Source: Candidatus Poribacteria bacterium
Lineage (GTDB): Bacteria; Poribacteria; WGA-4E; UBA9662
Length of the DNA: 64,000 nucleotides
Assembly: GCA_002709695.1 (NCBI GenBank)
Contig: PAQF01000078.1
Location: 48,351 to 112,350 of the forward strand
Reading direction: 5' to 3'
Position 1 is the stretch's first letter, and each line of letters opens with the position of its first letter. Of this stretch, positions 20,202 to 64,000 are shown piece by piece. A model generated the notes under the pieces. It searched no databases, was not told the origin of the DNA, and saw only the letters and a program-made list of their open reading frames with translations. The translations under genes and the position numbers were made by a program.

Positions 20202-20615
20202 GTGAGTGATATAAAGCTAAAATCTGAAAGAGAACGGCCAGGGGTAATCATTTCATTTCTGCGCTCCCAAGTTTCGGCTGGGTTTGGTAATGGATTGGAC
20301 TTCGTGATCAGCTGTCTTTTTTACCAATTTGGACAATTAGCAGTAATTGCCACATTTTTAGGGGCTACAATAGGTGGAATAGTTCACTTTTTTTTTAGCA
20401 GATTCTGGGGTTTTAAAGCTGACCATATGCCGATACAAGGTCAAGCTGTTCGTTTTCTTATTGCTAACATCGGTGGTATTGGGTTAAACATGTTGGGTGT
20501 TTATCTTATTCATGACCTGTTACAGGTGCACTTTCCTGTTGCGCGTTTGGGGGTGTCTTTCTTTGTTGGTTTTTTTTTCAATTTTCCTGTGCAGCGATGG
20601 TATGTCTTTAGATAA
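20202..20615 (+). CDS. GtrA-family small membrane protein (polysaccharide-synthesis associated)
   Basis: 137 aa with four predicted TM helices. Conserved C-terminal ...PVQRWYVFR and central RF...G motifs typical of GtrA-like proteins. Confidence 0.55.
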   Translation: MSDIKLKSERERPGVIISFLRSQVSAGFGNGLDFVISCLFYQFGQLAVIATFLGATIGGIVHFFFSRFWGFKADHMPIQGQAVRFLIANIGGIGLNMLGVYLIHDLLQVHFPVARLGVSFFVGFFFNFPVQRWYVFR

Positions 20616-20708
20616 AAGTAGTTTGTAGACGTTACTAAGGGGGAAACCGAAATTCCACTCGAATTTCTATATACTGAACTTTATTGGAGTTGAACTCGAT
20701 TTCCAAGG

Positions 20709-23400: not shown

Positions 23401-24404
23401 TGTCCTAGATCCGAATTTGCTGATGCGTTGAGGTCTAGCTTATCACGTTGTCCCTGCTGATACTTTTGGTAAGCAATTCCCGCAACCATAGCAGCATTGT
23501 CAGTACAAAGTTTAATAGAAGGATGAAAAACGTGCATATTATGTTCATCAGCAGTTTTTCGTAAGTTGTGTCGCAGGCGACTGTTAGCAGCTACACCTCC
23601 GGTTAGGTTGATTGATTTTACCTGATATTCTTGAGCTGCCCGAATCGTTTTTTTGACTAAGACATCAACGACAGCAGCCTGAAAGCTGGCGGCTATGTTT
23701 TCTAATGGTGGCAAATTCCCTGCGGCCTGTGCTTTCTCCACAAAATAACGAACGGATGTTTTTAAGCCGCTGAAACTGAAATTGTAGTCATCTCTGTTAA
23801 TCAACGGCCGTGGGAAATCAATGGCTTTTTCATCTCCTTTCTTTGCCATGTCGTCAATGATGCGTCCACCGGGAAAACCTAATCCCAAGTATTGAGCGAC
23901 TTTATCGTAAGCCTCACCGGCTGCATCGTCAATTGTGCTTCCGAGGATTTTATATGTCCAACCTTTATTAACTTTAAGAAGTAATGTATGTCCACCCGAG
24001 ACAGTCAGGCAAATGTGAGGAAATGTTAACTCGTCATGTTGCATGAAATTGGCGTAGACGTGACCTTCAACATGGTTTATCCCAATAAGTGGCAGGTTGT
24101 GACAGAAGGCAAGTGACTTTGCCGCGGAAACCCCGATAAGTAAAGCCCCAATTAGTCCTGGACGGTTGGTTACAGCAATTGCCTCTAGATCCTGAAATGA
24201 AACTTCTGATTCAGCTAGAGCATGATCTATAATGTAGTTTATAGATTCGACATGTTTCCGCGAGGCTAGTTCTGGGACAATGCCTCCATATTTTTCGTGT
24301 AGGTCAAATTGAGATGAGATAACGTTGGACAAAATATGCTTACCGTCTTCGACAACGGCAACAGAGGTATCATCGCAACTTGTGTCGATACCAAGGATTT
24401 TCAT
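23397..24404 (-). CDS. tsaD: tRNA N6-adenosine threonylcarbamoyltransferase (Kae1/Gcp/TsaD)
   Basis: MKILGIDTSCDDTSVAVV..., HxxGH metal site (INHVEGH), 335 aa. Confidence 0.9.
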   Translation of the reverse strand: MKILGIDTSCDDTSVAVVEDGKHILSNVISSQFDLHEKYGGIVPELASRKHVESINYIIDHALAESEVSFQDLEAIAVTNRPGLIGALLIGVSAAKSLAFCHNLPLIGINHVEGHVYANFMQHDELTFPHICLTVSGGHTLLLKVNKGWTYKILGSTIDDAAGEAYDKVAQYLGLGFPGGRIIDDMAKKGDEKAIDFPRPLINRDDYNFSFSGLKTSVRYFVEKAQAAGNLPPLENIAASFQAAVVDVLVKKTIRAAQEYQVKSINLTGGVAANSRLRHNLRKTADEHNMHVFHPSIKLCTDNAAMVAGIAYQKYQQGQRDKLDLNASANSDLGQ

Positions 24405-27370: not shown

Positions 27371-28504
27371 TCAAAACCTGACAGTCGAGGCAAAAGAGTG
27401 AGTAGCTTGATCAAAAGGTTGATCCCGGAAACGTCCTTGCAGTGAGTATTCCCATCTTGAACTACCTAAACCGAGGCTTAAACCAAGTGAACAAACACCA
27501 ACGCCATTGATCCGGCTCAAACCGTTTCGCAAGGCGACATTTCCAGAAAACCCACGATTCCACGATTTCACTAACTCCCAACCAAAAGCAAAGTCTAACC
27601 CACGGTGCCTTGGTACACGCCACACATCTAGCCCAGTAGTTAGCCACTTAAGAATTTTGGTGTTTGCCCCAATACCAATTTTCGTTGGTAATCGTTCCAC
27701 GAACTTACGTTGTAGTAGATTTCGTATCACTAAGCCGGTTAATATCTTACGTTTCCCTATCAGATCTATATTAAAACGGTGCTGATAACCGAGATCTAAA
27801 TCAAAATTGGATCTCTCTAAATCTTGACTAACTTCGTCAGATTGCTCAATGTATTGGCCCAAATCTGCTAAGTTTAAACTATCGATAATCGCGGGAATTA
27901 GTGCGCGAGGGTCATTAACGTTAATGTCGCTCGCGTGTTGCGCGTCCAAAGCCAATCCTACGAATACCTGACCTTTTTTTGCGTGCTGAGTAATCCGGTT
28001 TAAGCGAATCCCAAGTTGCGATCGACCCATTTTTTTACTATATCCTACATACCATCCGGATTGTAAAAGTTGATTGTATTCAGTTATAGAAAGTGTTTTA
28101 GCAAGAAACCTTTGTTCATCAACCAAGTACTCAGACCTAGTATTTTCCAGCGAAAATGTGGCTTTGTTTCTGAGTTCTGATAAATACCCAATGCTGAAGC
28201 CGTTCCCCTGAAAAGACCGAGAGTATGTGATTGATGGACTTAAATGAAGTTCCAATTGATCCGAAAATTGAAATTCTGGGACTGCAGGTAGCGGGGTATA
28301 ATGAAAATTAGAAAGCGTGACTCCTGCAGATAAATTGTTTCCTTCTACATCGACTAGCCCTGCTGGATTACCGAAAGCTGAAGCATCCGATGCATTTGTT
28401 GCAATCATGACACCACCCATTCCAATAATCCTTAGATTTTCGTTTGCTAAGGTGAAGCCGCAAATAAAAAAGAGAATGAGTGACGGGATTTTTGATTGCT
28501 TCAA
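27371..28504 (-). CDS. Outer-membrane beta-barrel protein, FadL/TodX/PorV-like
   Basis: Signal peptide. N-terminal LRIIGMGGVMIATNASDASAFGNPAGL resembles the FadL/PorV hatch motif. Alternating amphipathic strands. Ends in an aromatic residue (VRF). Confidence 0.45.
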   Translation of the reverse strand: MKQSKIPSLILFFICGFTLANENLRIIGMGGVMIATNASDASAFGNPAGLVDVEGNNLSAGVTLSNFHYTPLPAVPEFQFSDQLELHLSPSITYSRSFQGNGFSIGYLSELRNKATFSLENTRSEYLVDEQRFLAKTLSITEYNQLLQSGWYVGYSKKMGRSQLGIRLNRITQHAKKGQVFVGLALDAQHASDINVNDPRALIPAIIDSLNLADLGQYIEQSDEVSQDLERSNFDLDLGYQHRFNIDLIGKRKILTGLVIRNLLQRKFVERLPTKIGIGANTKILKWLTTGLDVWRVPRHRGLDFAFGWELVKSWNRGFSGNVALRNGLSRINGVGVCSLGLSLGLGSSRWEYSLQGRFRDQPFDQATHSFASTVRF

Positions 28505-28505
28505 A

Positions 28506-29417
28506 TTAGAATCTCAAGTCGTTGATTGTCACTGAGAAAACTGAGGTTGATGATCCATATTTTCCATTGACGTAGGCATAATCAATGCGAAAGTTATTAA
28601 ACTGATAACCGAAACCCATAGTAGGGCCACGTGAAATCCCATGGGTGAAACGATAACCGAATTGTACGTTTACGTTTTGAATTAAGTATTCTAACCCAAT
28701 TAGAGGCGCTCCGTTAGCATAATCGATAGCGAGTGTTCCACGTGACATTTTCTTGGAAAGCAACCCAAGTTTGAACGCAATCCCAATGCCCAATTCATGG
28801 TTTAATGTTTCGTGATAAGATGTGGCTTCCGCGTTCTTTAATTTCTGTCGATTGTAATTGACGTGCGAGATTAGGTTTGGTAGGTTAAAACCGATTGCCA
28901 CTTGATCTTCCTGCATTGTATAAAGAACTCCAATATCAAGTGCAATGCCGCGACCTGATCCAACTCGGATTTCGTCTATACTAGCTGATGATGAAAGAAA
29001 CTCACAATTCAGGCCAATCTGGAAAGTTTCCCAGATTTTTTGAGCTATTGCTATATTCAATATGAGTTCTTGATACAGTTCTTCTAAATCGCTTGAGCTA
29101 AGCAAGCCAAACCCAATCCCATGATTCGGTTGAATTGGAATCGCCAGCGAAATGAAACTGTAGTTGACAAGGTCATGGATTTCGAAATAATTTAACCCCA
29201 ATTCTGGGCGGTTTAAGCCAACTAAGCCGGAGGGGTTCCATGTAATTGCGTTGGCTCCCGTGGCTAAAGCAGTATACGAACCTCCCATTCCCATTGGTCG
29301 TGCAGAAATTCCCACATTTTCAAAAGCAGCATCAAGATAAGTCTGTGAGAAGAAGATCAGGAAGATTATAGAAATAAATGGGCTTCGATTTGTATCTGTT
29401 TTCAGTTGAGTCGCCAT
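28506..29417 (-). CDS. Outer-membrane beta-barrel protein, FadL/TodX/PorV-like (second paralog, 1-nt gap from the previous gene)
   Basis: Signal peptide. ARPMGMGGSYTALATGANAITWNPSGL N-terminal motif. C-terminal ...INDLRF. Confidence 0.45.
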   Translation of the reverse strand: MATQLKTDTNRSPFISIIFLIFFSQTYLDAAFENVGISARPMGMGGSYTALATGANAITWNPSGLVGLNRPELGLNYFEIHDLVNYSFISLAIPIQPNHGIGFGLLSSSDLEELYQELILNIAIAQKIWETFQIGLNCEFLSSSASIDEIRVGSGRGIALDIGVLYTMQEDQVAIGFNLPNLISHVNYNRQKLKNAEATSYHETLNHELGIGIAFKLGLLSKKMSRGTLAIDYANGAPLIGLEYLIQNVNVQFGYRFTHGISRGPTMGFGYQFNNFRIDYAYVNGKYGSSTSVFSVTINDLRF

Positions 29418-30680: not shown

Positions 30681-31035
30681 AATTCAGTCAATCTTTGGAA
30701 GATAAATGTATCGTGAACAAACAATCATAATGGAACGTAATCGATTTTTTGTTAATGGATGTGTCATACATGTTAAATCTTTAGAAAAACACGTGGAACC
30801 TCAAAGAAACAAAATAGATTTGACTCCAGGGCAAGCAGGTGGTAGTTAAATTTGGTTCGGGCTGTAATTTGGGAATGTCATTTGAAATCTATTCCCTGAT
30901 TTTGAAAATTGGCATTTTTCCGTTGAATATGAAAGTATTATCTTTAAAGTCTGGGTGTTTTTATTAGAAAGTGAATTGTCGTTTGCCATTGTTTTTGCGA
31001 TACTGACGTGACGGTTTTTGTGCAAATCTGAATTG

Positions 31036-31317: not shown

Positions 31318-31475
31318 TACTCGTTTAATTATTGTTTGTTTTGGTTTTGAGATTTGGTGTGTCCATGTTTGCTTATAAAGGTGATGATATGTTATAATCG
31401 GCGATTGGGCTCGAGAGAAGTCGGATTTTGATTGAATCTAACTTATTGCAAGGAAAAAATTACAAGGAAAAAAAC

Positions 31476-32537
31476 ATGACACGATTAAAAGTCGCGCGTT
31501 ATACGCTAGCTATTTTGCTATTAGCTCCGCTAGTTAGTATGTCACAGACTGCTGTTTTGGTTGATCCGTCTGTTGTAGAGTCGCCAGCTGTGGGTGCGGA
31601 TCTAGAGGTAGGTATCAAAATTAGCCAAGGTAGTAATGTTGCTGGATATCAGTTCACACTAGAATTTGACAATACTGCTCTTGAGTATATTACTATTGTT
31701 AATGCGAATTTTTTGCCGGCGGGAGCATTTGCAATTCCGCCGAAGGTTAATGGAGGCAAAGTCACTTTAGCTGCAACTTCATTGGCAGGAGGAACAAGCG
31801 GCGATGGAACGTTGGCTAAAGCAACTTTTAAAATTCTTAAAAAATCGGATTCTGCACTTAAGCTTTCGGGTGTTAAGCTCTCAGATCCAGATGCGAACGC
31901 GATTACATCGAAATCTATAAATGGTAAGGTGGCAGCGGAACTTGCGTCTGTTATAACCAAACGACCGTTCGGAGGTCAGTCTCTAAAACTTAGTGCTCAG
32001 GTTACCAAAGCGGGTTCTCCAGTGACTGCACTGAAGGCTGTTTCTCAGGATGCAGGTATTGCTAAGGCAGGAACATTCATAGAGTATCAAGTAAAGTTCT
32101 CAAATTTGAGCGCTTTGAAAGTCGGCGGTGTTTACGTTCATACCTCCGACGGCCAAGTCATTGGTCCCTCGGATCCCGCTAAGGGAATGCGTTTGCAAGC
32201 TGATGAAGATGGTGGTTGGATCCATAGTAGGTTATCTTTAACCCCTGTTGAAGGTAAGCAAATTGCTGCTATTACCGTTGGAACCAAAGTTGATTCGGCT
32301 CCAGCTGGTCTATTCAGCATGTTTATTGACAACATACAGATGACTGATGGAAATAAAACGTTACAACCTATATGGCTTTCTTCTGCTAATGCAGGAGATA
32401 CAGTAGCAGCTGAGCCTTACGGTGATCTGGTTGGTGTTGAAAGTCTTGATGTTGGTGTTAGTGATGATGTAAAGATTGCTGTTGAACCAAAGAACAAGGT
32501 TGTCACAATTTGGGGGAAAATCAAGAGTGTGAAGTAG
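31476..32537 (+). CDS. Secreted protein with a cohesin-like / Ig-like beta-sandwich region
   Basis: Signal peptide MTRLKVARYTLAILLLAPLVSMSQT. LEVGIKISQGSNVAGYQFTLEFDNTALEYI resembles cohesin-type domains. Weak assignment. Confidence 0.35.
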   Translation: MTRLKVARYTLAILLLAPLVSMSQTAVLVDPSVVESPAVGADLEVGIKISQGSNVAGYQFTLEFDNTALEYITIVNANFLPAGAFAIPPKVNGGKVTLAATSLAGGTSGDGTLAKATFKILKKSDSALKLSGVKLSDPDANAITSKSINGKVAAELASVITKRPFGGQSLKLSAQVTKAGSPVTALKAVSQDAGIAKAGTFIEYQVKFSNLSALKVGGVYVHTSDGQVIGPSDPAKGMRLQADEDGGWIHSRLSLTPVEGKQIAAITVGTKVDSAPAGLFSMFIDNIQMTDGNKTLQPIWLSSANAGDTVAAEPYGDLVGVESLDVGVSDDVKIAVEPKNKVVTIWGKIKSVK

Positions 32538-32714
32538 TTTCTGATTTTGAAGTAACCCTTTAAACTGCATGAAAAATCCTAGTCTGCTAAACGATTGGGA
32601 TTTTTTTTTGATCTGATTTTAGCTTTGGGTCAATCTCCTCTTGACACGATATCCGGCCTTTGCTATGATATTTGGGCTTTCTAATTGTCTTTCCTGCCTA
32701 ATATAAGGATAACT

Positions 32715-34655
32715 ATGAAGATCTCAAAATTCCTGGTCCTCTTATTGGTTTTGGCTACCATGCCGATTGTGTCTGTGGCTGATAAAGCCTTTAGACATGT
32801 CTCTGGAAATGTTGATGTTTCAGTTACAGATTTCGGATCATTTACAGCATTTAGAGGAGGAGGGTTTGCTGATAATTTCGAGTATCCTAAAGGAAGCGGT
32901 AAATACTATCTTCAACAGTTTTCCGAAATCTGGATTGGCGATGCAAAGGGGAACGTTGCAACAGCTTGGAACTTAACTAACAAGGGCGTTGCCCCTCTTT
33001 CAGGGAACTGGCGTACAACGGAGACGGGGGAGGTTACGCTGGATCCCAAGCCAGACGGGCGGCAAATTGTAAATGCGCAGTATGATTCACATCGTATAAA
33101 AGGGTTTCCACTTGACTTGCTTGTTGATCAACAAAGTTTTTCATGGTCGAGCAAAAATTATCCGGAATACGATGATTTTCTGATTTTGAAGTTAACAATT
33201 ACAAATCCTAGTGCGGTGAATCTCAAGGGTATTTATGTTGCTCTTAGTACGAATTGGAATGTAGATGGTGAGGATATGAAAAAAGGACAACTGAGTACCG
33301 ACATGATGGATTGGAACGCAGAAAATCGTATGCTCTTTGCCTTTGATGCTGATAGTAAGGATGGTCTAGATCCTGTTCATGTTGGTACATCGCTAATTAG
33401 TGGGAATGTGGCTGCTCACCAAATCTATACTTTTAGAAATATTAAAGGGCAAGTAGATGTTGGTGTGTTTAATGACGCGAATCGGTCACTCTTTATGTCG
33501 AACCCTAATTTCTTGGTTGCTAAGCGGATTGGAGGTCGATCCAGAGCAGATTTAATCAAATTCAAGTTTCCACCATGGGATTATATTGGAATCTTGTCGT
33601 CGGGGCCACATACTATCCGAGCGGGCAAATCCATTTCGGTTACGTTTGCATTGGTTGCTGGTAAGAGTTTATCAGAGCTAAAACAGAATGCTAGTAATGC
33701 CAAAAGGATTGCATATGCTTCGCCTGACATTACGGCAAAGGTTGTCAAAGGAGGTGTGGAAATTGCCTGGGAGAAACCGATTAGCTTTGTTGGAGGGTAT
33801 CAATTATTTCGTAGAATCGAAGGAGATGAAATATTTGAACAGATCGGTCCTCGTATTATAGAAGGTGCTGTTTTCCCTGATACAGATGTTCAATATGGCG
33901 TTGAATATACATATAGAGTCTCAGCCGTTGATTATAAAGGTACACCAATAGAGTCTTATTCCAAAGAAGTAACAGTCATGCCTGATTTTATTCCCGATCC
34001 ACCGGTTGGGATGACTGGAGAATTTACTACAGAAGGTAACTACTTTCTATTAAGATTGCCTGAACCCACTCAGAAAATCAGTCAGTATATCATATACCGT
34101 AACCATACCGGAGAACCGCCTTGGACACCAATAGCCAAAGTTAAGCCAGATACAAAGAATTTTACCGACACGAATATCTACCCGGAGTACCAGTATTTTT
34201 ATGCATTAGCGGGAACTAATCGATCTGGTGATATTGGCGATATTGCTGTAATGCTAGACCCTGAGACTGAGGAACCTATCAGTTTGGAGATTGTTGCGGC
34301 GCCAAAATCTACTGCTAAGCTGGATTTGAAGGAGGTTATCGTTTATCCAAATCCATTTCAGATCAGCCGGCATGAGACCATGGTCTTTGATCATTTAACT
34401 GCTCGTGCAATGATTTATATCTATGATGGGTCAGGTGCTTTGGTTCAGCAATTAGAACACATTGATAAAAGTCCCCGCCTAGAATGGGATCTTAGGAATT
34501 GGGGTGGTGTGCCTTTATCATCCGGAGTTTATATCTATTATATCGAGGACATTGGTTCTGTAAAGACTCATGATCTAGATAATGACGAATTACTACCTCA
34601 CCCTTGGCAAATTGAAAAACATACACATACTGGCAAGTTTGTTGTAATTAACTAG
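32715..34655 (+). CDS. Secreted protein carrying a type IX secretion system C-terminal sorting domain (T9SS CTD, type A)
   Basis: Signal peptide MKISKFLVLLLVLATMPIVSVA. The C-terminal ~100 aa (VYPNPFQISRHETMVF...IYIYDGSGALVQQL...WDLRNWGGVPLSSGVYIYYIED...GKFVVIN) match the T9SS CTD consensus. Confidence 0.6.
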   Translation: MKISKFLVLLLVLATMPIVSVADKAFRHVSGNVDVSVTDFGSFTAFRGGGFADNFEYPKGSGKYYLQQFSEIWIGDAKGNVATAWNLTNKGVAPLSGNWRTTETGEVTLDPKPDGRQIVNAQYDSHRIKGFPLDLLVDQQSFSWSSKNYPEYDDFLILKLTITNPSAVNLKGIYVALSTNWNVDGEDMKKGQLSTDMMDWNAENRMLFAFDADSKDGLDPVHVGTSLISGNVAAHQIYTFRNIKGQVDVGVFNDANRSLFMSNPNFLVAKRIGGRSRADLIKFKFPPWDYIGILSSGPHTIRAGKSISVTFALVAGKSLSELKQNASNAKRIAYASPDITAKVVKGGVEIAWEKPISFVGGYQLFRRIEGDEIFEQIGPRIIEGAVFPDTDVQYGVEYTYRVSAVDYKGTPIESYSKEVTVMPDFIPDPPVGMTGEFTTEGNYFLLRLPEPTQKISQYIIYRNHTGEPPWTPIAKVKPDTKNFTDTNIYPEYQYFYALAGTNRSGDIGDIAVMLDPETEEPISLEIVAAPKSTAKLDLKEVIVYPNPFQISRHETMVFDHLTARAMIYIYDGSGALVQQLEHIDKSPRLEWDLRNWGGVPLSSGVYIYYIEDIGSVKTHDLDNDELLPHPWQIEKHTHTGKFVVIN

Positions 34656-34715: not shown

Positions 34716-34798
34716 GCCCCTGTGGTGGAATTGGTATACACGGCAGGTTGAGGGCCTGTGTCTTCTTAGGCGTGCTGGTTCGAGTCCAGTCGGGGGCA
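34716..34798 (+). tRNA. tRNA-Leu (anticodon GAG), type II with long variable arm; no encoded CCA
   Basis: Folded manually. Acceptor GCCCCUG/CGGGGGC with an A discriminator. Anticodon stem GCAGG/CCUGU, loop UUGAGGG (GAG, G37). Variable arm ~14 nt. T-arm GCUGG-UUCGAGU-CCAGU. Confidence 0.8.
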
Positions 34799-34838
34799 CT
34801 CTTAGGATGTTGAAGGGTTGATTAGCCTTTTTTAATAT

Positions 34839-41431: not shown

Positions 41432-42256
41432 ATGAGTGATAATTTAGTTATTAATAATTTGCGTGTAAATGTCGCAGGAGGGGAAATCCTAAAAGGTCTT
41501 TCTCTATCAGTGAAATCTGGTGAAATTCACGCGCTAATGGGGCCAAATGGTTGCGGCAAAAGCACGCTTGCTAACGCTTTGATGGGGCACCCGAATTATA
41601 ATGTTGATTCTGGTAGTGTAACCCTTAATGAGATCGATGTCCTTGAACTTGGACCAGATGAGCGTGCAAAGTTAGGCCTGTTTTTAGCTTTTCAATACCC
41701 TACAGCAATTCCTGGGGTAACCTTAGCAAATTTTCTTCGGATGGCGGTTAGTGCTGTACGAATTGTCGATGGTAATGATGCTGCTACGACGTCGCTGGTA
41801 CCAATGCGTGAGTTTCGAAAAGAACTGCGTGGAAAGATGGAGGAGCTTGGTGTTGATGATTCGTTTGCACGTCGTTATCTCAATGATGGTCTTTCCGGAG
41901 GAGAGAAAAAGCGAGCAGAGGTCTTACAACTTGCTATGCTCGAACCAAAAATTGCGATTCTTGACGAAACTGATTCTGGGCTTGATATTGATGCGATAAA
42001 GGTGGTAGGGGAAAGTGTCAATCAGCTTGTAGGTCCGAATCTAGGCGTATTAATTATTACGCATTATCCAAGACTTTTGAATTATATAAAACCCCATTTT
42101 GTTCATGTTATTTTGGATGGCAGGATCGTTGAATCTGGTGGTTGGGAGCTTGCAGAGAGACTTGAAGCAGAAGGGTATGATGCTATACGCGAAAAACATG
42201 GTGTTGAATTCGTACAACAAACAGATCCGAAACTCGATGCTCCAATTCAAATATAA
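41432..42256 (+). CDS. sufC: Fe-S cluster assembly ATPase SufC
   Basis: Walker A GPNGCGKST, signature LSGGEKKR, Walker B ILDETDSGLD. Followed by sufB and sufD. Confidence 0.9.
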   Translation: MSDNLVINNLRVNVAGGEILKGLSLSVKSGEIHALMGPNGCGKSTLANALMGHPNYNVDSGSVTLNEIDVLELGPDERAKLGLFLAFQYPTAIPGVTLANFLRMAVSAVRIVDGNDAATTSLVPMREFRKELRGKMEELGVDDSFARRYLNDGLSGGEKKRAEVLQLAMLEPKIAILDETDSGLDIDAIKVVGESVNQLVGPNLGVLIITHYPRLLNYIKPHFVHVILDGRIVESGGWELAERLEAEGYDAIREKHGVEFVQQTDPKLDAPIQI

Positions 42257-42280
42257 GATCTGAATGCAAAGAAGGTAAAA

Positions 42281-43684
42281 ATGTCAATAAATAAGGCTGA
42301 AGTTGGTATTGGTGACTACAAATACGGTTTTCACGACGACGTGGCACCAGTTTTCAAATCTCGCAAAGGTTTGGACAGTGAGATTATTAACCAAATATCT
42401 GAAATGAAATCTGAACCGGATTGGATGCGTGAATTCCGGCTCGAAGCGTATGAAATTTTTAAGGCGAAGTCTGATGTTAATTGGGGCGGGCATCTCGCCG
42501 CACTCGATTTTAATGACATATACTACTACGTAAAAGCCTCGGATCGTCCTGAGCGTAATTGGGAAGATGTACCGGAAGATATCAAGAAAACCTTTGATCG
42601 TCTAGGGATTCCTGAAGCTGAAAGGAAGTTTCTTGCCGGTGTTGGAGCTCAGTATGATTCCGAAGTCGTTTACCATAGTGCACGGGAAGAGCTTGAGAAA
42701 ATAGGTGTTCTCTTTCTCGATACAGATACCGCACTAAAAGAACACCCTGATCTGTTCCGAGAGTATTTTGGGACAGTCATACCATCTTTGGATAATAAGT
42801 TTGCAGCTCTGAATAGTGCTGTGTGGAGTGGCGGTAGCTTCATATATGTACCTCCCGGAGTGAAAGTTGACTATCCACTCCAAGCATATTTTCGAATTAA
42901 CACCGAGAATATGGGCCAATTTGAACGGACATTGATCGTTGTTGATGAAGGGGCAGAAGTTCATTATGTCGAAGGGTGCACCGCACCAACCTATTCGAGT
43001 GAATCTTTGCACAGTGCAGTCGTCGAAATCGTTTGCAAACCGCACTCACGTGTTCGTTATACGACCATTCAAAATTGGGCCGGTAATGTCTATAATCTAG
43101 TAACAAAACGTGCTATGGCATACGAAGGTGCCACCATGGAATGGGTCGATGGTAATCTTGGTAGTAAGTTGACTATGAAATATCCAAGTGTCTATATGGT
43201 TGAAGAAGGGGCCCATGGTGAGATACTCTCGATTGCCTTTTCTGGAGCTAATCAGCACCAAGATGCTGGTGGGAAAGTAGTACATCTCGCCCCAAATACT
43301 ACTTCACGAATTATTTCTAAATCAATAAGTAAGAATGGTGGTCGCTCAAGTTATCGAGGGTTGTTAAAGGTTGCCAAAAATGCAACTGGCTGCAAATCGA
43401 ATGTCGTTTGCGATGCGCTTATGCTAGATTCTGACTCTCGTTCTGATACTTATCCATATATAGAAGTTGATACTGCGGATGTTACCGTTGAGCATGAGGC
43501 TCGTGTTAGCAAAATTGGTGAAGAGCAACTCTTTTATCTTATGAGTCGCGGACTTTCTGAGGAGGATGCCTCAACGATGATTGTGAATGGATTTATCGAA
43601 CCACTTGTTAAAGAACTTCCAATGGAATATGCCGTAGAGATGAACCGATTAATTCAATTACAAATGGAAGGCTCTATTGGTTAA
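42281..43684 (+). CDS. sufB: Fe-S cluster assembly protein SufB
   Basis: 467 aa. Conserved SufB C-terminal beta-helix region (...[39 protein letters not shown]...). Confidence 0.9.
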
Positions 43685-43734
43685 CTTGTGCTGTTAAGAT
43701 TAAGAAGGCTACTGGGCTGGGAGCAAATCAAGTT

Positions 43735-45039
43735 ATGACATCTGGTTTTACTCGTGAATCTGTTGCTCAGATTTCTGAGTTTCAAAACGAACCTCCTTGG
43801 ATGCTCGAGAGAAGAATTCAAGCTTTTCAAATTTTTGAACAGCTCCCGCTTCCAAAAACGAACGACGAAAGTTGGCGCCGAACTGACATTCGAGGGCTGA
43901 ATCTCGAACAATTTCAACTGGTTACTTCGAATAAATCGCAAACTAATGGTAGATACTCTGAGCTTTTCTCTGGTGTAGAAGAGCAAGAAAATTCTGGATT
44001 AATTGTTCAGAACGATGTATCTGTGATTCATTCTACACTTTCAGATTTCCTTATTAATAAAGGAGTATATTTTTCTGGATTCAAGACAGCACTGGATGAA
44101 CGACCGGATCTTCTCGAAAACTATCTATGTCAGACAATTCAATCAACAGAAAATAAATTTAATGCAATGCATAACGCATTTTTACAAAGTGGTTATGTGT
44201 TATATGTACCCAAAGGAGTAGTAATTGATTTTCCTTTGCGGGTTATTGTTTCATTGTCTGGCGAATCAACCGCTGATTTTTCGCATACATTGATTATTGC
44301 TGACGATGAAAGTCAAGTAACTATACTTGAAGAACATCTTTCAGTTGATCAACAAGGACAGGGTTTACATTGTGGTGGTGTTGAAATATTTCTTGGTCGA
44401 AATGCTTTTGTCAATTATGCCCAAGTTCAGAATTGGAACAAAAAAGTCTGGAATTTCTCAACGCAAAGGGCTAAGCTCGAACGCGGTGCTAACCTGCGTT
44501 GGATTACTACGTCATTAGGAAGTCGCTTGAGTAAGTTAGATCAATTGGTTGAAATGAATGGAGAAGGGAGCCATGCTGATCTTTTAGGGCTAACTGCGAC
44601 ACATGCACGCCAACATATTGATATTCATACTTATCAGAAACATGCTGTTTCAAACAGTACAAGCAATTTACTATATCGGAACGTCTTAAAAGATCGATCC
44701 AGAACGGTTTGGCGAGGTATGATTGAAGTTGATAAAGGCGCACAAAAGATCGATTCTTACCAACAAAATGACAATTTGATTTTGAGCAAGCGAGCCCGTG
44801 CCGATACAATTCCAGGGTTAGAGATCTTGGCAGATGATGTTCGTTGTACTCATGGAGCAACGGCTGGAAAAATCGATCAAGAACAGGTGTTCTACTTGAT
44901 GAGCCGAGGTTTGTCTTATAACCAAGCTGAACAGACAATTGTTAATGGCTTTTTTGAATCAGTTTTACAGCGAATTCCACTAGAATATTTACGTAACCAA
45001 TTACAAAAATCAATTGTAGGTAAACTGCAATTGAATTAA
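43735..45039 (+). CDS. sufD: Fe-S cluster assembly protein SufD
   Basis: 434 aa SufB/SufD-family paralog (…[28 protein letters not shown]…) directly after sufB. Confidence 0.8.
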   Translation: MTSGFTRESVAQISEFQNEPPWMLERRIQAFQIFEQLPLPKTNDESWRRTDIRGLNLEQFQLVTSNKSQTNGRYSELFSGVEEQENSGLIVQNDVSVIHSTLSDFLINKGVYFSGFKTALDERPDLLENYLCQTIQSTENKFNAMHNAFLQSGYVLYVPKGVVIDFPLRVIVSLSGESTADFSHTLIIADDESQVTILEEHLSVDQQGQGLHCGGVEIFLGRNAFVNYAQVQNWNKKVWNFSTQRAKLERGANLRWITTSLGSRLSKLDQLVEMNGEGSHADLLGLTATHARQHIDIHTYQKHAVSNSTSNLLYRNVLKDRSRTVWRGMIEVDKGAQKIDSYQQNDNLILSKRARADTIPGLEILADDVRCTHGATAGKIDQEQVFYLMSRGLSYNQAEQTIVNGFFESVLQRIPLEYLRNQLQKSIVGKLQLN

Positions 45040-45068
45040 TTATTTCCAAAATCTAAGGAGAAAATAAG

Positions 45069-45431
45069 ATGAACCAGCCGAAAATTACTGGATATATGAA
45101 GCCTACCTGTGGATGGAGTCAAGGTGTACGAGCTGTTCTACAGAAATACAACTTGGAATATGAAGATCGAGATATCATAAACAACCCAAATAATTATCAA
45201 GAAATGGTTGAAAAAACTGGTCAGCCGTACCAACCATGTGTTCAAGTTGGTGATGTGATTTTAGCCGATGTGAGCGGGGAAGAAGTCGAGTCCTATCTCC
45301 TTCAGGAAGAAATCGTTAAACCCATTGAGACTGATTTAGATGTAGCTACAGATCGCGGATGTTCCGATGAAGAACATGCTGCTATGCGTGCTGAAGCTGC
45401 TACGCAATGGACCAACTTTTCCTCTGAGTAG
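45069..45431 (+). CDS. Glutaredoxin-like thioredoxin-fold protein (C-G-W-S motif)
   Basis: 120 aa. KPTCGWSQG near the N-terminus resembles a monothiol/CxxS glutaredoxin-like active site. Located in the suf cluster. Confidence 0.45.
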   Translation: MNQPKITGYMKPTCGWSQGVRAVLQKYNLEYEDRDIINNPNNYQEMVEKTGQPYQPCVQVGDVILADVSGEEVESYLLQEEIVKPIETDLDVATDRGCSDEEHAAMRAEAATQWTNFSSE

Positions 45432-45524
45432 TACGCTAATTTATCTTCTTTGGTCGATGTAAAAGAAATAGAAATTAGAGTGTGTCAGTTTTTGGCTTTT
45501 TTGAGGTTAATATAGAATTATTCA

Positions 45525-45836
45525 ATGAGTGATTTTTTTAGAGTTGCTAAGACAAGTGAGATTCCAAAAGGGGGAAAGAAACTGGTTGAAGTTGATTTTT
45601 TACCAGTTGCAATTTTCAATATCGGTGGTGAGTACTATGCCATAGAAGATGTTTGTACTCATGATGGAGGACCGCTTGCTGAAGGTGAATTAGAGAACGA
45701 AGAGATCGTATGTCCTAGGCATGGAGCGCGCTTCAATGTTAAGACAGGACAAGCTCTATGTATGCCTGCATTCGAAGACGTAGAATGCTATGAAGTTAAG
45801 ATTGAAAATGACAAAATTTACGTTAGTGTTGATTGA
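45525..45836 (+). CDS. Rieske [2Fe-2S] ferredoxin-like protein
   Basis: CTHDGGPL...CPRHGARF (CxH...CxxH Rieske motif). 103 aa. Confidence 0.7.
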   Translation: MSDFFRVAKTSEIPKGGKKLVEVDFLPVAIFNIGGEYYAIEDVCTHDGGPLAEGELENEEIVCPRHGARFNVKTGQALCMPAFEDVECYEVKIENDKIYVSVD

Positions 45837-45842
45837 AGTGAA

Positions 45843-46157
45843 ATGAAGGGAATAACTATGGTTACTGAAGAAATTGTTCTCGAACAGATAAAGCAAATTA
45901 TAGATCCAGATATTGGCCTAAACATCGTGGATATGGGATTAATTTATGGTGTGGACATCAACGATGATATTGTAAATATTACTATGACTTTAACTAGTCC
46001 AGGCTGTCCTGCAGCTCCACAATTGTTGAATGGATCGCAAACTGTTGTTCAACAATTAGATGGTGTCGAAGAAGTGAATGTCAATGTTGTGTGGACTCCA
46101 CCGTGGGATCCAGAAATGATGAGCGAGGAAGCAAAAGACGAACTTGGAATTTTTTAA
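45843..46157 (+). CDS. DUF59/MIP18-family (SufT-like) Fe-S assembly protein
   Basis: IIDPDIGLNIVDMGLIYGV...TMTLTSPGCPAAP is the DUF59 signature. Last gene of the suf block. Confidence 0.7.
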   Translation: MKGITMVTEEIVLEQIKQIIDPDIGLNIVDMGLIYGVDINDDIVNITMTLTSPGCPAAPQLLNGSQTVVQQLDGVEEVNVNVVWTPPWDPEMMSEEAKDELGIF

Positions 46158-46173
46158 TAGGAATGAGTATTAG

Positions 46174-47817
46174 TCATCGAACTGTAATTCGTACAGTCCC
46201 TTCGTATGGGGTGATTGGCGCTAATATGAGTCGAGCAACTTTGCTATCATTCTTTACTTGGAAAATCTTGTGTTCCATCCTCCCTCCTTCTATTTGAATT
46301 CGATCCTTGTCGTTTTCGATGATAGCTAGTTCTTCAGAAAGAAAGACAGTGTCAGTTTCTCTTAGATCCCAATTGCAATCTCCAACAAATAAAGTGCCGA
46401 TCTTCCTTATACCAAGTTCGATAATGAGTGGAATGCCTACCCATCCTTCAGTTGTAAAGTTCAATTCAAAACCATCCTTAATTCGATCAATTTCTATGAA
46501 GATCCTTAAATTCAAGGCAACCACTTCACGTCTTTTAGATTTGGGTCGGAATACACACTGGATGGTCTCACTCTCAGCTAAATAAGTTTTTCGATCAATG
46601 GCAAGACCTGTCATCAGCACGTGACGAAATCCTTGGTAAACACTGCTCATTGACATACTATCGATAGCTATGCTGTGGTTATGAAGCGAGAAAAAGTTAC
46701 TCTGATTGCCTATGATAGTTGTGCTTGTTTTTCCCGAACGAATGAATGCGATATTCGATTTCTGGTAAAATCTCTCATATTGATCGTTCATAGGTAATCG
46801 ATTGATCCAATCGTTGTCAATCTCCAACTCTGTTTCAAGAAATTGTCCAATATTAGATGTGACAAACAAACGCGAATTATTACCGAGTTGAAAGTTAGGA
46901 TTGGGATGATTTAAGTACGGTCTAATTATCCCATTATCAAAACGGCTAAGGTATGCATTTAGCGTCAAATCACCAGCTGTAGCATATAAGCCATTTTGGT
47001 CCACAATCGACATTTTTTTCCAGACGGCATAGCCGGAAGGAAGCCCATTTTCAAAACCTGATTCTGAGAATCCTGTGGTGGCTTCACCGTTTGATCGAAA
47101 TGTATACAGTAAAAAATTGAGGTTCCGCCGCACAAAATCTAATAAGTCAAGTTGGCCCAAACGTTCAGCAAAACTTAAGATTGCAGCATTAACAATCATG
47201 TTTGAGGTTGAACTTCGGTCTGGGTAAAGGCCATCGGCACTAATTTCGATTCCATCTTGGATGTACGATCTCGCTTTTCTATTAATTTCTGGGTCATCGA
47301 AGAGGTAATCGTACTCAAGAAGGGCTTCAGCAATTAGAAATTGGTGATGATTTAGCAGAACAGGCTCATTTTGAACTCCATTTACGGCTTTATCCAAAAA
47401 GTCTTTTACCTGATCAGAAAAATCGTTATTAACAGTTGGGTCTCGTACTAGCCATTTATATGTACGTAATAATGCCAACATAGAAACTGCGGTACTTGGC
47501 AGGGAAATTTCGGGTTCGCAGTAAAAACCTCTAACTGTACCATCTTGGTTTTGTGACCTAAGCAAGAATTTGATGGTGAGTTCCATTCGATCGAAGAGAT
47601 CTTCCCTATAGTGGTAATGAGAGTCTGAGTTGACGTAGAGTTGTGCTAGAATGGATAAAATATTTGCTGCGGCCCATGGTTCGCAAACTAATTTCTCAGG
47701 ACAACGAAACCCTCCAGAATCGGAGTTAGACTCTTCTAACACTTGGCTGTGTAGCACGCAACCAGCATAAATTTCGGCGAGGTCAAGAATGGATTTGTAA
47801 TTGGCTCTCGTTGTCAT
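46174..47817 (-). CDS. Hypothetical protein, possibly alpha/alpha-toroid (heparinase II/III- or glycoside-hydrolase-like) fold
   Basis: 547-aa ORF with no signal peptide. Rich in aromatic residues. No catalytic motif recognised with confidence. Confidence 0.35.
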   Translation of the reverse strand: MTTRANYKSILDLAEIYAGCVLHSQVLEESNSDSGGFRCPEKLVCEPWAAANILSILAQLYVNSDSHYHYREDLFDRMELTIKFLLRSQNQDGTVRGFYCEPEISLPSTAVSMLALLRTYKWLVRDPTVNNDFSDQVKDFLDKAVNGVQNEPVLLNHHQFLIAEALLEYDYLFDDPEINRKARSYIQDGIEISADGLYPDRSSTSNMIVNAAILSFAERLGQLDLLDFVRRNLNFLLYTFRSNGEATTGFSESGFENGLPSGYAVWKKMSIVDQNGLYATAGDLTLNAYLSRFDNGIIRPYLNHPNPNFQLGNNSRLFVTSNIGQFLETELEIDNDWINRLPMNDQYERFYQKSNIAFIRSGKTSTTIIGNQSNFFSLHNHSIAIDSMSMSSVYQGFRHVLMTGLAIDRKTYLAESETIQCVFRPKSKRREVVALNLRIFIEIDRIKDGFELNFTTEGWVGIPLIIELGIRKIGTLFVGDCNWDLRETDTVFLSEELAIIENDKDRIQIEGGRMEHKIFQVKNDSKVARLILAPITPYEGTVRITVR

Positions 47818-50443: not shown

Positions 50444-52828
50444 TTAGTATAAAATCCTAATTTGAGGAGAATTTGAGCTAAGAAGGTAAAATTGATTAGT
50501 ATACTGATTATAACTAATAGATTTAGGGAGGTTCCCACTTGTGATATTAATATCCTCGTGTACTATTTTTAACGGCATTTCAATAATTCGGACTCGCCCA
50601 CTGTAATCAAGGACAAATGCTAATTCACGGTTATTTCGTTCTCGACGAACAGACACACCTTTCGGTGCAACACCAATTTTGCGGGAAATAATTTTTCTGT
50701 GCGTTACCATATCAACGATACTTAGGTCATCCGAAAGTGTATTGACAATATAAAGATATTGTCCGTTTTTTGCTGTAGCAACAACATTTGGAGCGCCTCC
50801 TACAACAATATCCATGATATGGTTTTGGCTACGAACGTCAATGACTGAAATACTATTACTCCCTACACAGGCAACATAGAGATAGTCCTCATTTGGGGAT
50901 AGCACCAGCCCTGCTGGCTGTTTACCGACAGCAATACTATGTACACGCATCGGTATTGATAGGTCCACTACTGCTATTTTATGTTCCCGTTGCAAACTCG
51001 CGTACATGGTAGTCCCATCCTCAGAAACAATACAATCAACTGGATAATCACCAACTGTAAATTGATGTACTTCTTGGTTAAGAGTTGTGTCAATGACTGA
51101 TACTTGATCCAGATCTGATATAGTAACGTAGACCTCTGGCTTCACGGGATTGGCTGCTATGCCAAGATGATGGCAATCGGATGAGCTACATTCCAAGATT
51201 ATCTGACCAATCGTATTATGTGTATGAGGGTCAATTACAAGAATCTGATTGCTGTTTTCGCTTGTTACATACGAACTTTGATTGGTATGGACAACTTGAG
51301 TTGGTTCGTCAATTCGATCACGAATTTCTATCCTCCTTTGTGGAAGCGGGCTAAGCTCAACTCTAAGGAATGCAAATGCCTGTCTAGTTTTGGTAGTTTC
51401 CAAACGACTCAAGTATCCATCTGCAGTAACTTGAAGAGAATAGGTTCCTTCTTGATCATAGGATAGCATGAAGTTTCCACTTGAGTCAGATAAAGTCTTG
51501 GTCTTATGTCTTATTGTTTTTAAACGGACTCTATTGATTGGTAAACCGTCATAGGCATTACTAACTGTTCCTGTGATACTTCCTAGTTTAACTGCTCGGA
51601 TTGGTAATTTTAAATTTCCTCCGTTACCAGTAAAACCAATATTAATTATGTACTGATTTGCATCCAACTGAGACCTAAAAATTCGAACACTTACATCTTG
51701 TGTTTGCCCTTGGTTTATTATGCCACTGTTAGGTGTCAACTGTATCCAGCCCTCTGGTGATTTTGCTGACCAAGACAAAATTCCTTTTCCTATGTTTTTT
51801 ATTTTGATTTGCTGTGATTCTGAAAAAACTCCAAAATCGATTTCTGAGACTGAGAAATCCATGACAGCCTGTGTAACGTTAGCAACAATTTTGACGGTCT
51901 TGCGCCCAGCATTAGTTCCGCTTACAGTAATAATCGTATTATATTGGCCTGGTTCTAGAATAATTCGATTAATTTGTAGGATAGCAGTCGAAGTTTTCGT
52001 GGTAACCTTTCCTAATCGTGGTTTAATTTCTAACCACTCAGCTCCTCCACCAATTTGCCAATCCAAGACTCCTGTACCTGCATTACGAATTTCGATTGTT
52101 TGGAAAATATCATTAGGACCAAAAGTAATTGACTGTGGGGCAATAAATAATTTTGGCGCTTCCGGAATATCTAATGTTACTCGAACAACAATAGAAGGGC
52201 TTTCTTCTGATTCAATAGTAATTATTGCACTGTATGCACCCGGAGAAAGTTTACGGTCCACATGTACATTGATGACTTGATCCTGTTTGGCTTCAATGGT
52301 GCCATCTTTTGTATTTAAGGTGACCCAGTCTTGATTAACAACTGCTTCCCATTTCAAAATGGCATTTCCGGTGTTGCTAATTTGAAGTGGTAGATCTACA
52401 GCTCTTTTGCCGAAGTTCATCAGTGTTTTTGAAACACTTAAAATGGGAACGACAAAGTTGATTTGCTCAATATCTGATTGCTCACTTTCATTTTCTTTGT
52501 CATCACCGGAAGTTACTAAATAAAAATAAGTTCGATCTGCTGTAACACCTTGATCAAAATATTGTAAGCGAATTGAGTTTCCCAAGAGAATATAATGCCC
52601 ATTTCGTTCCGTAGCACGATAAATTTTGTAACGAATTACAACGCCTGCCAGATCTTCTGCTAGTTCCCAAGTAAGATTTATACCCTGATTTATTATCGTT
52701 GCTTTTAGATTATGGGGTATGGGAAGTATAACCGTTTCCTCGCTAGACTCCTCGCAATTTAGTGATAAGAAAAAGGTGAAACAAAACATAACAATAACAG
52801 CTTTGTTCATCAAGGCTTGGGAATTCAT
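50444..52828 (-). CDS. Large secreted multidomain protein: signal peptide, several Ig/fibronectin-like beta-sandwich domains, carboxypeptidase-regulatory-like domain, C-terminal YVTN-type beta-propeller repeats
   Basis: Signal peptide MNSQALMNKAVIVMFCFTFFLSLNC (possible lipoprotein Cys). Repeated ...SVIDT.../...YVTISDLDQVSVIDT... motifs typical of YVTN/NHL propellers. Confidence 0.5.
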   Translation of the reverse strand: MNSQALMNKAVIVMFCFTFFLSLNCEESSEETVILPIPHNLKATIINQGINLTWELAEDLAGVVIRYKIYRATERNGHYILLGNSIRLQYFDQGVTADRTYFYLVTSGDDKENESEQSDIEQINFVVPILSVSKTLMNFGKRAVDLPLQISNTGNAILKWEAVVNQDWVTLNTKDGTIEAKQDQVINVHVDRKLSPGAYSAIITIESEESPSIVVRVTLDIPEAPKLFIAPQSITFGPNDIFQTIEIRNAGTGVLDWQIGGGAEWLEIKPRLGKVTTKTSTAILQINRIILEPGQYNTIITVSGTNAGRKTVKIVANVTQAVMDFSVSEIDFGVFSESQQIKIKNIGKGILSWSAKSPEGWIQLTPNSGIINQGQTQDVSVRIFRSQLDANQYIINIGFTGNGGNLKLPIRAVKLGSITGTVSNAYDGLPINRVRLKTIRHKTKTLSDSSGNFMLSYDQEGTYSLQVTADGYLSRLETTKTRQAFAFLRVELSPLPQRRIEIRDRIDEPTQVVHTNQSSYVTSENSNQILVIDPHTHNTIGQIILECSSSDCHHLGIAANPVKPEVYVTISDLDQVSVIDTTLNQEVHQFTVGDYPVDCIVSEDGTTMYASLQREHKIAVVDLSIPMRVHSIAVGKQPAGLVLSPNEDYLYVACVGSNSISVIDVRSQNHIMDIVVGGAPNVVATAKNGQYLYIVNTLSDDLSIVDMVTHRKIISRKIGVAPKGVSVRRERNNRELAFVLDYSGRVRIIEMPLKIVHEDINITSGNLPKSISYNQYTNQFYLLSSNSPQIRILY

Positions 52829-62836: not shown

Positions 62837-63168
62837 ATCTTGTAAATTCCTAGAATAACAAATTTAGCATCCTCAGCCAATTCTGTAATCTGTTGGTTTC
62901 TGTCTACTACAATTAGTTTCTTGTTTAAACTTTGATGGTGCTGATAGGGTTTGTTGATTTTTTGTTGAATTGGTGGCTATGGTATATGGTAAGTCGTTTG
63001 AACTGGTGGAATAATGTTATTTTAATCAAAATTTGTTTATCCTAGGGTTGAGGTAGTATCATAGTTTATGGAATATGTGTTCACATAGATAGATACTACT
63101 GGGCTCTGAGGTTAGTAAGGGTTGATATAACATAAAATGCAATTCATCTAACATACAAGGAAAAATTC

Positions 63169-64000
63169 ATGACTAACGAAAATGCTAAGCGAAATACCCG
63201 AATACCTGTCGTATGTTCTTTATTATTATTTGCCTTGATAAACCTGAGTGCTTTTAGTGCAAAAACATTAGATTGGGCTAATTCCATTGAGAAGGGAATG
63301 CAAGAGGCCAAAAGGGCTAATAAGCCAATTATGGTCGATTTTTATATAGATTACTGAGGGGCGTGTGATCGGCTGGATGCCGAAACGTTTACAGATAAAA
63401 ATGTCATCGAATTATCAAAAAAGTTTGTGGTCTTAAAGGTCAACCCTCAAGATACAGATCATCCTGAAAATGCAGAGATGGTAAGGAAATATGGTATTAC
63501 ATATTATCCTACTATTGCGTTCTTTAGTCCAGATAGGCACTTAATCAGTTCTAATACCGGGTATATTCCACCTGGTCAATTCTCTGAATTAATGAAGAAA
63601 ACACTTAAAGAGGAAAAGGAATTAGAGAGTTTAAGAGCAAAAGTCCAAAAAAATCCGGACAATCTCAAGGCAAATGTCAGCTTGGCGATGATCTACATCA
63701 AACGAGGTAATCTCGCAAAAGGACGAACTTTAGTCAACACAATATCGGCACTGGATCCTAAGAACCAATCCAAATTCTTTAAAAAAGTTTATGCGCAAAT
63801 GGCTCTAGTCAATGTAAATCAGAGTAATATTAAAGACGGCCAGGCTTTGCTCGATAAAGCGTCGGATCTTGATCTAAAAGACGAGTCTGCGTACTTACCC
63901 AAACTCCATGTGAATTTTGGTCTTTTTTACGGTCAGAATGGCCAAAGTAATAAAAATTATCTGCAAAAAGCGGAGGAGCATTTCAAAGCTGTTACTAGGA
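63169..64000 (+). CDS. Candidate selenoprotein: signal peptide, thioredoxin-fold domain with U-G-A-C redox motif (in-frame TGA at 63355..63357), then TPR-like repeats; runs off the window end
   Basis: A 62-aa ORF ends ...KPIMVDFYIDY-TGA. The same frame continues uninterrupted from 63358 to the window end: GACDRLDAETFTDKNVIELSKKFVVLKVNPQD...YGITYYPTIAFF.... This is the canonical thioredoxin-like layout (FYADWCGPC...KV..D...G..G.PT..F) with Sec replacing the first Cys. A SECIS-like hairpin lies at 63358..63390. Confidence 0.5.

Follow-up and report, generated by a model that had tools for sequence, protein, structure and literature searches.

Does the TGA at codon 63 of the reading frame that opens with ATG 63169 terminate translation, or is it read as an amino acid? 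The frame lies at the end of a 64,000-nt stretch of the Candidatus Poribacteria contig PAQF01000078.1 (positions 48,351 to 112,350, forward strand; termed the window below). An annotation made from the letters alone (the sequence-only reading) had proposed a selenocysteine (Sec)-containing periplasmic thiol-disulfide oxidoreductase with tetratricopeptide repeats (TPR), and a selenocysteine insertion sequence (SECIS)-like hairpin directly after the UGA. This proposal is supported by the domains, the conserved TGA and the conserved hairpin. With a probability of roughly 0.88, the locus is a SelB/SECIS-dependent selenoprotein gene, predicted to encode an exported DsbD-gamma/Thioredoxin_7-type UxxC domain with Sec, fused to a TPR domain.

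Reading frame, domains and conservation of the UGA codon

Translation confirmed the ATG at 63169, the TGA at 63355-63357 and a frame that is open from there through position 64000, all as previously described. The absence of a start codon near the TGA was verified as well: the earliest in-frame ATG, GTG or TTG past it is GTG 63427, which already lies within the thioredoxin domain. The conceptual read-through protein contains ...KPIMVDFYIDY-U-GAC-DRLDAETF... and, further on, ...YYPTIAFF. Metagenome contigs (L100-L103) supplied the remainder of the gene; the complete open reading frame (ORF) comprises 337 codons and ends with TAG, which is the true stop in all examined members of the Sec thioredoxin-TPR family. 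Four independent metagenome assemblies contain the window allele; they differ from it at 0-3 of 2,985 nt and have TGA at codon 63.

The N-terminus, earlier called signal-peptide-like, carries three basic residues (K/R) followed by a hydrophobic core of 11 residues with a mean Kyte-Doolittle value of 3.13, as determined by hydrophobicity and charge count. The same layout is common to Sec-form and Cys-form homologs. Pfam profile scoring was done with U written as C. Scores above the gathering thresholds were obtained for Thioredoxin_7 (PF13899; 57.7 bits, 1.3e-15) and Thioredoxin_2 (PF13098; 55.1 bits, 1e-14), both with a cut-off of 27, for TPR_19 (29.1 bits, 1.2e-6; cut-off 25), and further for Thioredoxin (41.9 bits) and DUF255/Thioredox_DsbH (36.5 bits). 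The closest solved chains by sequence were 2kuc_A (5e-14) and DsbD-gamma (~1e-8). In alignments with solved thioredoxin-fold structures, including 2kuc and PDI, the U column coincides with the first Cys of WCGPC/WCGHC, and U63-G-A-C66 and Y-Y-P114-T match WCGPC and YPT of 2kuc. In the AlphaFold model of an ortholog (P0009), the TPR half is all-helical, with a predicted local distance difference test (pLDDT) score above 90, and its Foldseek matches are TPR proteins; the Sec position starts a helix (50-59), with a pLDDT below 50 there. The thioredoxin-like (Thioredoxin_7/DsbD-gamma-like) active-site neighbourhood, the fusion of TPR repeats to the thioredoxin fold, and the placement of the TGA at the first Cys of CxxC, all named in the sequence-only reading, were borne out by these matches, the last of them also by full-length Cys-form homologs.

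A protein search returned 14 relatives, 13 of which were gene calls truncated downstream of the TGA position and one a full-length protein with W there. At the nucleotide level, TGA was present at the aligned codon in 19 of 19 metagenome loci and in 4 of 4 near-identical contigs, i.e., in 23/23 metagenome loci. One scan of species-representative genomes resulted in 80 loci, 58 TGA orthologs and 22 more distant homologs. Of the 56 species-representative genomes that hold the 58 orthologous loci, all with TGA, 53 are labelled Candidatus Poribacteria and 3 'uncultured bacterium'. In total, 81/81 orthologous loci, drawn from independent samples, assemblers and species, have TGA, and none has TGC or TGT at codon 63. 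Protein identity among the TGA orthologs ranges from ~33 to 96 %, and both sides of the TGA are conserved, with the peptides KPIMxDFYxxx before and xxC(K/D)(R/L)LDA(E/D)TF after it.

The 22 more distant homologs have TGC or TGT at the aligned codon. They stem from Planctomycetales, Isosphaeraceae, Armatimonadetes, Ignavibacteria, Zixibacteria, KSB1, Latescibacterota and others, plus one poribacterial paralog. An exhaustive HMMER search yielded 17,158 relatives at E <= 1e-3, and full-length proteins with signal peptide, WCxxC and TPR domain that carry Cys at the site exist (P0023, P0025, P0041-43). The correspondence of TGA to Cys, which had been put forward together with the existence of Cys-containing homologs, was therefore upheld. 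None of the homologs starts past the TGA and still has a complete Cys motif, and the TGA is not a private error of one assembly.

Two diverged TGA copies on different contigs, either paralogs or mixed strains, were observed in the metagenome-assembled genome (MAG) NP41 (PBXZ01; L048 and L052) and in SRP338948_co1_166 (L061 and L077). Public gene calls split the gene at the TGA in all 23 metagenome loci where calls were shown. The public protein P0009 (L001 87-935) has W at the Sec codon because its short Logan contig was gene-called with genetic code 4.

Hairpin downstream of the UGA codon

The hairpin 63359-63390 is the predicted minimum free energy (MFE) fold of positions 63355-63400 (-11.4 kcal/mol), as the sequence-only reading had drawn it. 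Its apical part (63369/63370-63382/63383) is conserved in the family; the outer stem (63359-63364/63385-63390), the inner pairs of which belonged to the same drawing, is specific to this sequence. The core hairpin is located 12-27 nt after the TGA and consists of the stem CGGC/GCCG and the loop UGGAU, whose second and third positions are G; the additional pair U63369-A63383 is formed in only about one quarter of the orthologs. In a set of 10 sequences, 72 % of the lower-stem cells are paired; RNAalifold on 58 sequences dropped this stem. Three lower-stem registers were tried (5-10/31-36, 10-12/31-33 and 10-15/34-39); none holds across the 58 sequences, and the apical hairpin alone was kept.

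According to the published model of bacterial SECIS (bSECIS) elements, the loop has 3-9 nt, the stem at least 4 bp and the first two loop positions include a G; the distance from the UGA is 16-37 nt and the MFE is at or below -7.5 kcal/mol (PMC13188914). The hairpin fits these limits with a loop of 5 nt, a stem of 4-5 bp, G at loop position 2, a spacing of 16 nt and the MFE given above. The likeness to bacterial SECIS geometry that had been noted thus held against the published constraints, and the hairpin is under strong selection at the nucleotide level, as follows.

Codons +5 to +9 after the UGA are nearly frozen among the 66 unique sequences: CGG is used for Arg in 61/61, CTG for Leu in 66/66, GAT for Asp in 63/65, GCC for Ala in 60/66 and GAA for Glu in 41/41 cases. 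At most flanking degenerate codons the relative codon entropy is ~0.5-1.0. The frozen codons are rare in the window, where CGG accounts for 11.6 % of the codons for Arg, CTG for 9.0 % of those for Leu and GCC for 16.5 % of those for Ala. Together, the frozen bases build the stem C(G/U)GC / GC(C/A)G around UGGAU, and 98.7 % of the cells of the inner stem are paired. The second stem pair (17-27) is G-C in 52, U-A in 5 and G-U in 1 sequence and is never broken; in its U-A state, Arg is replaced by Leu and GCC by the synonymous GCA. At the flanking pair 15-29, 15 sequences have U-A and 3 have G-C. Cys-form genes served as control: a hairpin is present at this position in 55/59 Sec genes vs 0/22 Cys genes, and the mean MFE of 48-nt segments is -13.1 kcal/mol in Sec genes vs -8.1 kcal/mol in Cys genes.

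In three orthologs (L031 10184-10231, L032 and L034) the stem-closing C-G pair is replaced by a C.A mismatch (codons GCC-ACT). Extra pairs below the mismatch, G15-C29 and A14-U30, keep the hairpin in a shifted form.

Proposed decoding of the UGA and genomic setting

From these observations we infer the following course of events. UGA codon 63 would be decoded as selenocysteine during translation, with the hairpin 12-27 nt downstream recruiting SelB-GTP and Sec-tRNA(Sec) as the UGA enters the ribosomal A site, and translation would proceed to the true TAG, resulting in a 337-residue protein. The signal peptide is predicted to direct this protein across the cytoplasmic membrane. The mature thioredoxin domain would then attack through the Sec of U-G-A-C, which would provide a stronger nucleophile at motif position 1, and the TPR domain probably holds client proteins. 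The protein is most likely a periplasmic thiol-disulfide reductase or isomerase.

If translation ended at the TGA instead, the locus would encode a 62-residue exported peptide and a separate downstream gene starting at an internal GTG or ATG, and all automatic gene calls do split it into pieces of 59-62 aa and 230-268 aa. The pieces, however, always share one frame with the TGA as sole separator, and together they make up one thioredoxin fold. The called starts vary inside this fold ('MVLKVNP' 24 codons and 'MCERLD' 2 codons downstream), the downstream piece lacks both signal peptide and active site, and the Cys-form homologs are single continuous proteins. Two separate genes are thus very improbable. 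If the TGA were a lesion of a pseudogene, or an error of sequencing or assembly, a single TGY-to-TGA change in a normal Cys gene would account for it, and the initial view was limited to one sequence. With TGA in every one of the 81 orthologous loci, an identical allele in four independent assemblies, strong amino-acid conservation on both sides and no ortholog with TGC or TGT, this explanation is contradicted and its probability is negligible. Genome-wide use of TGA as a sense codon (Trp in code 4 or Gly in code 25) would agree with the W in P0009, but this residue was produced by a gene caller that read a short contig with code 4; TGA stands in the DNA there, and with table 11 the gene does not translate to the P0009 sequence. 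Moreover, TGA is a normal stop in the window, where it ends 7/44 long ORFs, e.g., the Rieske gene 45525-45836; neighbouring genes translate normally with table 11, and the homologs have Cys, rather than Trp or Gly, opposite codon 63. A reassigned code therefore has practically no chance of being correct.

The remaining explanation retains the SECIS/SelB route and exchanges only the amino acid: a tRNA(ReC)/SelC*-type tRNA would insert cysteine at the UGA, giving an ordinary CxxC protein. Decoding of a SECIS-dependent UGA as Cys by tRNA(ReC) has been documented (Vargas-Rodriguez 2018, as cited in PMC13582414), tRNAs of this type occur in 13-17 % of the genomes analysed (PMC13582414), and the DNA examined does not separate Sec from Cys insertion. 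On the other side, no tRNA(ReC) is reported for Poribacteria in the literature examined, and SelA and SelD, which are needed only for Sec synthesis, are annotated in three poribacterial genomes. That a costly recoding signal should be kept over 56 species for Cys is also hard to explain, as a single-base change to TGC or TGT would suffice. Because of the SelA/SelD annotations and this cost, cysteine insertion is considered unlikely, and selenocysteine remains the preferred residue.

The window was scanned for TGA codons between long open frames, resulting in 13 candidates. The 12 candidates other than the 63169 ORF were either overlaps on the strand opposite to real genes or adjacent gene pairs sharing a frame by chance; among the latter are the Rieske gene 45525-45836 with the DUF59 gene 45843-46157, and the frame 30839-31011 with an Smr gene. 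Coding support across the TGA junction was found only for the 63169 ORF.

Genes of the Sec machinery were searched at several levels. No tRNA-Sec was detected in the window (ARAGORN, Rfam), a tRNA-Leu being the sole find, and no SelA, SelB or SelD domain was present in the 52 window ORFs analysed with Pfam (44 of >= 150 aa plus 8 shorter). Nor was a tRNA-Sec found with ARAGORN in 60 poribacterial loci around orthologs (~1.2 Mb of flanks), as is expected for such small samples. In Table S4 of Slaby et al. 2017 (PMC5649159), COG1921 SelA, COG3276 SelB and COG0709 SelD are listed for three poribacterial genomes, with SelA/SelB/SelD counts of 2, 1, 1 in Ca. Poribacteria WGA-3G, 2, 1, 1 in bin70 and 4, 1, 2 in bin44; bin70 and bin44 are classified as Poribacteria there. 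One of the TGA orthologs (L043) is located on a WGA-3G contig. In addition, Sec-type group 4 [NiFeSe] hydrogenases were reported in Poribacteria MAGs (PMC13582414, 2026). The presence of a Sec machinery, for which the sequence-only reading had proposed a genome search, is supported at phylum level by the COG tables of other Poribacteria.

Several points weigh against a Sec-containing protein at this locus. Published sel COG calls do not extend to the pelagic clade to which the window belongs; the lack of sel genes in the window and flanks was also listed here, yet it carries no information either way. The thioredoxin half of the P0009 AlphaFold model is of low confidence (pLDDT 46-70) because the database sequences are truncated at the TGA, and this half was left unused for the active site. 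Taken alone, the window hairpin has z = -1.64 relative to dinucleotide shuffles, and 11/200 shuffles fold equally well. The five U-A sequences at pair 17-27 form one clade, so that the covariation probably reflects very few independent events, and when RNAalifold was run on 58 sequences, just 3 bp remained, with a tiny covariation term. The conserved K-R-L-D peptide places a further constraint on part of the 5' arm, and the Cys-form L078 retains AAGCGGCTGGAC without the 3' arm. As a single sequence the hairpin does not exceed chance, whereas the comparative evidence shows that it is real.

The host is a marine (pelagic/deep-water) member of Candidatus Poribacteria. The window is most closely related to contigs from Tara Oceans and other marine metagenomes and to pelagic poribacterial MAGs such as NP41 and OC6_3000m. 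Its G+C content is 39.9 %, and its genes are typical of Poribacteria (WD40-FGE-sulfatase fusion, PhyH, GFO_IDH_MocA, HEAT repeats, cohesin and BACON proteins). Orthologs of the sponge clade are situated after rnpA-yidC-jag-mnmE; those of the pelagic clade have an AXE1/S15-like hydrolase upstream and a CheR-type methyltransferase downstream. No conserved redox partner and no dsbD or ccdA as conserved neighbour was found at the ortholog loci, and the neighbours give no functional clue. An IS605 OrfB/Cas12f-like TnpB gene is present ~4 kb downstream of a sponge-clade ortholog (L002 14993-16312, minus strand) and absent at the syntenic locus L003. About 7 kb downstream of the predicted selenoprotein gene, beyond the window, the contigs L100-L102 carry two tandem CobW-family GTPase genes (~19846-21821, plus strand). 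A CobW-related selenoprotein family is part of the published inventory (PMC13188914); the tandem genes were rejected as a TGA-split selenoprotein, being in different frames and showing no TGA split.

A side observation within the window is a SUF iron-sulfur assembly cluster: sufC, sufB and sufD are followed by glutaredoxin-like, Rieske and DUF59 genes (41432-46157, plus strand). The BACON_2 and cohesin proteins look cell-surface or glycan-related. Ten ORFs of 191-656 aa had no Pfam match at E <= 1e-5. All coordinates are compiled in Table 1.

Table 1. Features of the 64,000-nt window, with the predicted selenoprotein gene listed first
Feature	Position	Strand	Basis and remarks
Predicted selenoprotein CDS	63169..64000	+	Translation; 277/337 codons inside the window, remaining 182 nt to TAG past the window end
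Shine-Dalgarno-like AAGGA, putative ribosome-binding site	63157..63161	+	Read from the sequence; 7 nt upstream of ATG
Predicted Sec-type signal peptide, ~residues 1-30, core VVCSLLLFALI	63169..63258	+	Hydrophobicity/charge count; possible cleavage between AFS and A
Thioredoxin-fold domain, Pfam Thioredoxin_7, residues 35-121	63271..63531	+	Pfam, PDB sequence matches; cis-Pro motif YYPT, Pro114 at 63508-63510
UGA codon 63, predicted selenocysteine, position 1 of the U-G-A-C redox motif	63355..63357	+	TGA in 81/81 loci; Cys in distant homologs
TGT codon 66, resolving Cys of UxxC	63364..63366	+	Cys in 66/66 unique sequences
Conserved SECIS core hairpin	63369..63383	+	Fold, pair counts, codon freezing; UCGGC 63369-63373, loop UGGAU 63374-63378, GCCGA 63379-63383
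Extended hairpin, lower stem 63359-63364 / 63385-63390 around core	63359..63390	+	MFE -11.4 kcal/mol; lower stem not conserved in family
TPR-repeat domain from ~residue 148	63610..64000	+	Pfam TPR_19, AlphaFold model of ortholog P0009, Foldseek; runs beyond window
Glutaredoxin-like protein, CGWS (CxxS) motif	45069-45431	+	
Small Rieske ferredoxin	45525-45836	+	Ends in TGA
FeS_assembly_P/DUF59 protein	45843-46157	+	
770-aa WD40 beta-propeller + FGE-sulfatase (sulfatase-modifying-factor) fusion	11655-13967	+	
794-aa protein, BACON_2 + CarboxypepD_reg + beta-propeller domains	50444-52828	-	
369-aa cohesin-domain protein	31428-32537	+	
tRNA-Leu(GAG)	34716-34799	+	Sole RNA gene detected in window
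ORFs without Pfam match, part 1	2455-3324, 3358-4122, 8562-9398, 14880-15455, 15519-17396		
ORFs without Pfam match, part 2	24401-26179, 27371-28504, 28506-29417, 32685-34655, 46174-47817		

Significance and comparison with known systems

The public gene calls examined for the Sec thioredoxin-TPR family are truncated at the TGA, with the consequence that the active-site half is missing from the protein entries examined. With this locus, Poribacteria, which do not appear in the 2026 selenoproteome review, gain a well-supported selenoprotein; it would also imply that Sec decoding is maintained phylum-wide, in sponge symbionts as well as in free-living deep-water lineages. The putative SECIS element is a small and clean example, with a 4-bp GC stem, a UGGAU loop and the minimum spacing of 16 nt, and could help to define the needs of a non-enterobacterial SelB. 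The general picture is unchanged, as Sec at the first CxxC position of thioredoxin folds is already the commonest bacterial theme.

A wider proposal, to which slightly less than even odds are given, is that the gene represents an uncatalogued exported Thioredoxin_7-TPR UxxC family, fixed in its Sec form since the base of Candidatus Poribacteria; this age is suggested by the presence of TGA in all species sampled and of Cys in none. If so, the family may be one protein that keeps the Sec-decoding trait in a largely aerobic, sponge-associated and pelagic phylum, and its TPR arm could hold clients for a periplasmic 'chaperedoxin'-like reductase.

Neither 'TPR' nor 'tetratricopeptide' occurs as a term in the 2026 inventory (PMC13188914) or in the GOS paper (PMC2398784), and the name 'Poribacteria' is absent from the former. 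A literature search for bacterial thioredoxin-TPR selenoproteins or selenoproteins of Poribacteria retrieved only the hydrogenase paper (PMC13582414). Among the NCBIfam selenoprotein families, all of which were rejected, the best matches to the thioredoxin domain were TsoB (NF045694; 70.8 vs a cut-off of 805 bits) and Trx7/PDZ (NF041199; 33.4 vs 300 bits); VPGUxxT (NF041383) scored 18.7 vs 275 bits and PDO_seleno_TRX (TIGR02187) 15.6 vs 185 bits. TsoB and Trx7/PDZ resemble the poribacterial protein in their Sec-bearing Thioredoxin_7/DsbD-gamma-type domain. They differ in their partner domains, which are PDZ, or rhodanese plus the DsbD membrane part, vs TPR here, and in their motifs (PMC13188914), with CxxU in Trx7/PDZ and UxxxxU in TsoB vs UxxC in the poribacterial protein.

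The DsbD protein-disulfide reductase family (NF001419) was rejected too (62.4 vs 330 bits); only its C-terminal gamma domain was matched (profile positions 458-572). DsbD-gamma and 2kuc, a Bacteroides Thioredoxin_7-type disulfide isomerase, share the layout of WCxxC, K-V/L-D and cis-Pro YP(T/A), and both are periplasmic reductive-pathway thioredoxin domains. They use Cys and not Sec, however, and DsbD-gamma is tethered to a membrane electron conduit, whereas the poribacterial protein is predicted to be soluble with a TPR tail.

Among solved proteins, a thioredoxin domain followed by a TPR domain was found only in the 'chaperedoxin' YbbN/CnoX of E. coli (3qou). CnoX is cytoplasmic and has an SxxC motif; unlike the poribacterial protein, it is devoid of a signal peptide and of Sec. 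Foldseek aligned 260 columns with 3qou at a TM value of 0.20, a root-mean-square deviation of 22 A and 15 % identity, the thioredoxin half of the model being of low confidence, and 3qou was absent from the sequence matches at E <= 1e-3. The likeness is thus architectural, and homology over the whole protein is not shown.

The closest counterparts are the UxxC thioredoxin-fold selenoproteins, the commonest bacterial type, which include Trx, Grx, 'thiol:disulfide interchange protein' (PF13098), Trx-like, DsbA-like and DsbG-like proteins (PMC13188914; PMC2398784). The 'thiol:disulfide interchange protein' and 'Trx-like' groups (PF13098/PF00085) are attributed by PMC13188914 to Kryukov & Gladyshev 2004 and Zhang & Gladyshev 2008. 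With these two groups the poribacterial protein shares the thioredoxin fold, the predicted Sec in place of the first Cys, a SECIS-like hairpin directly after the UGA, the far commoner Cys homologs and a score above the PF13098 threshold. In apparent contrast to them, it combines a predicted signal peptide with a TPR domain at the C-terminus, and it occurs in Poribacteria only, where it is fixed as the Sec form. The poribacterial protein is probably a UxxC thioredoxin-fold oxidoreductase of this known kind, in a thioredoxin-TPR form that appears to be uncatalogued.

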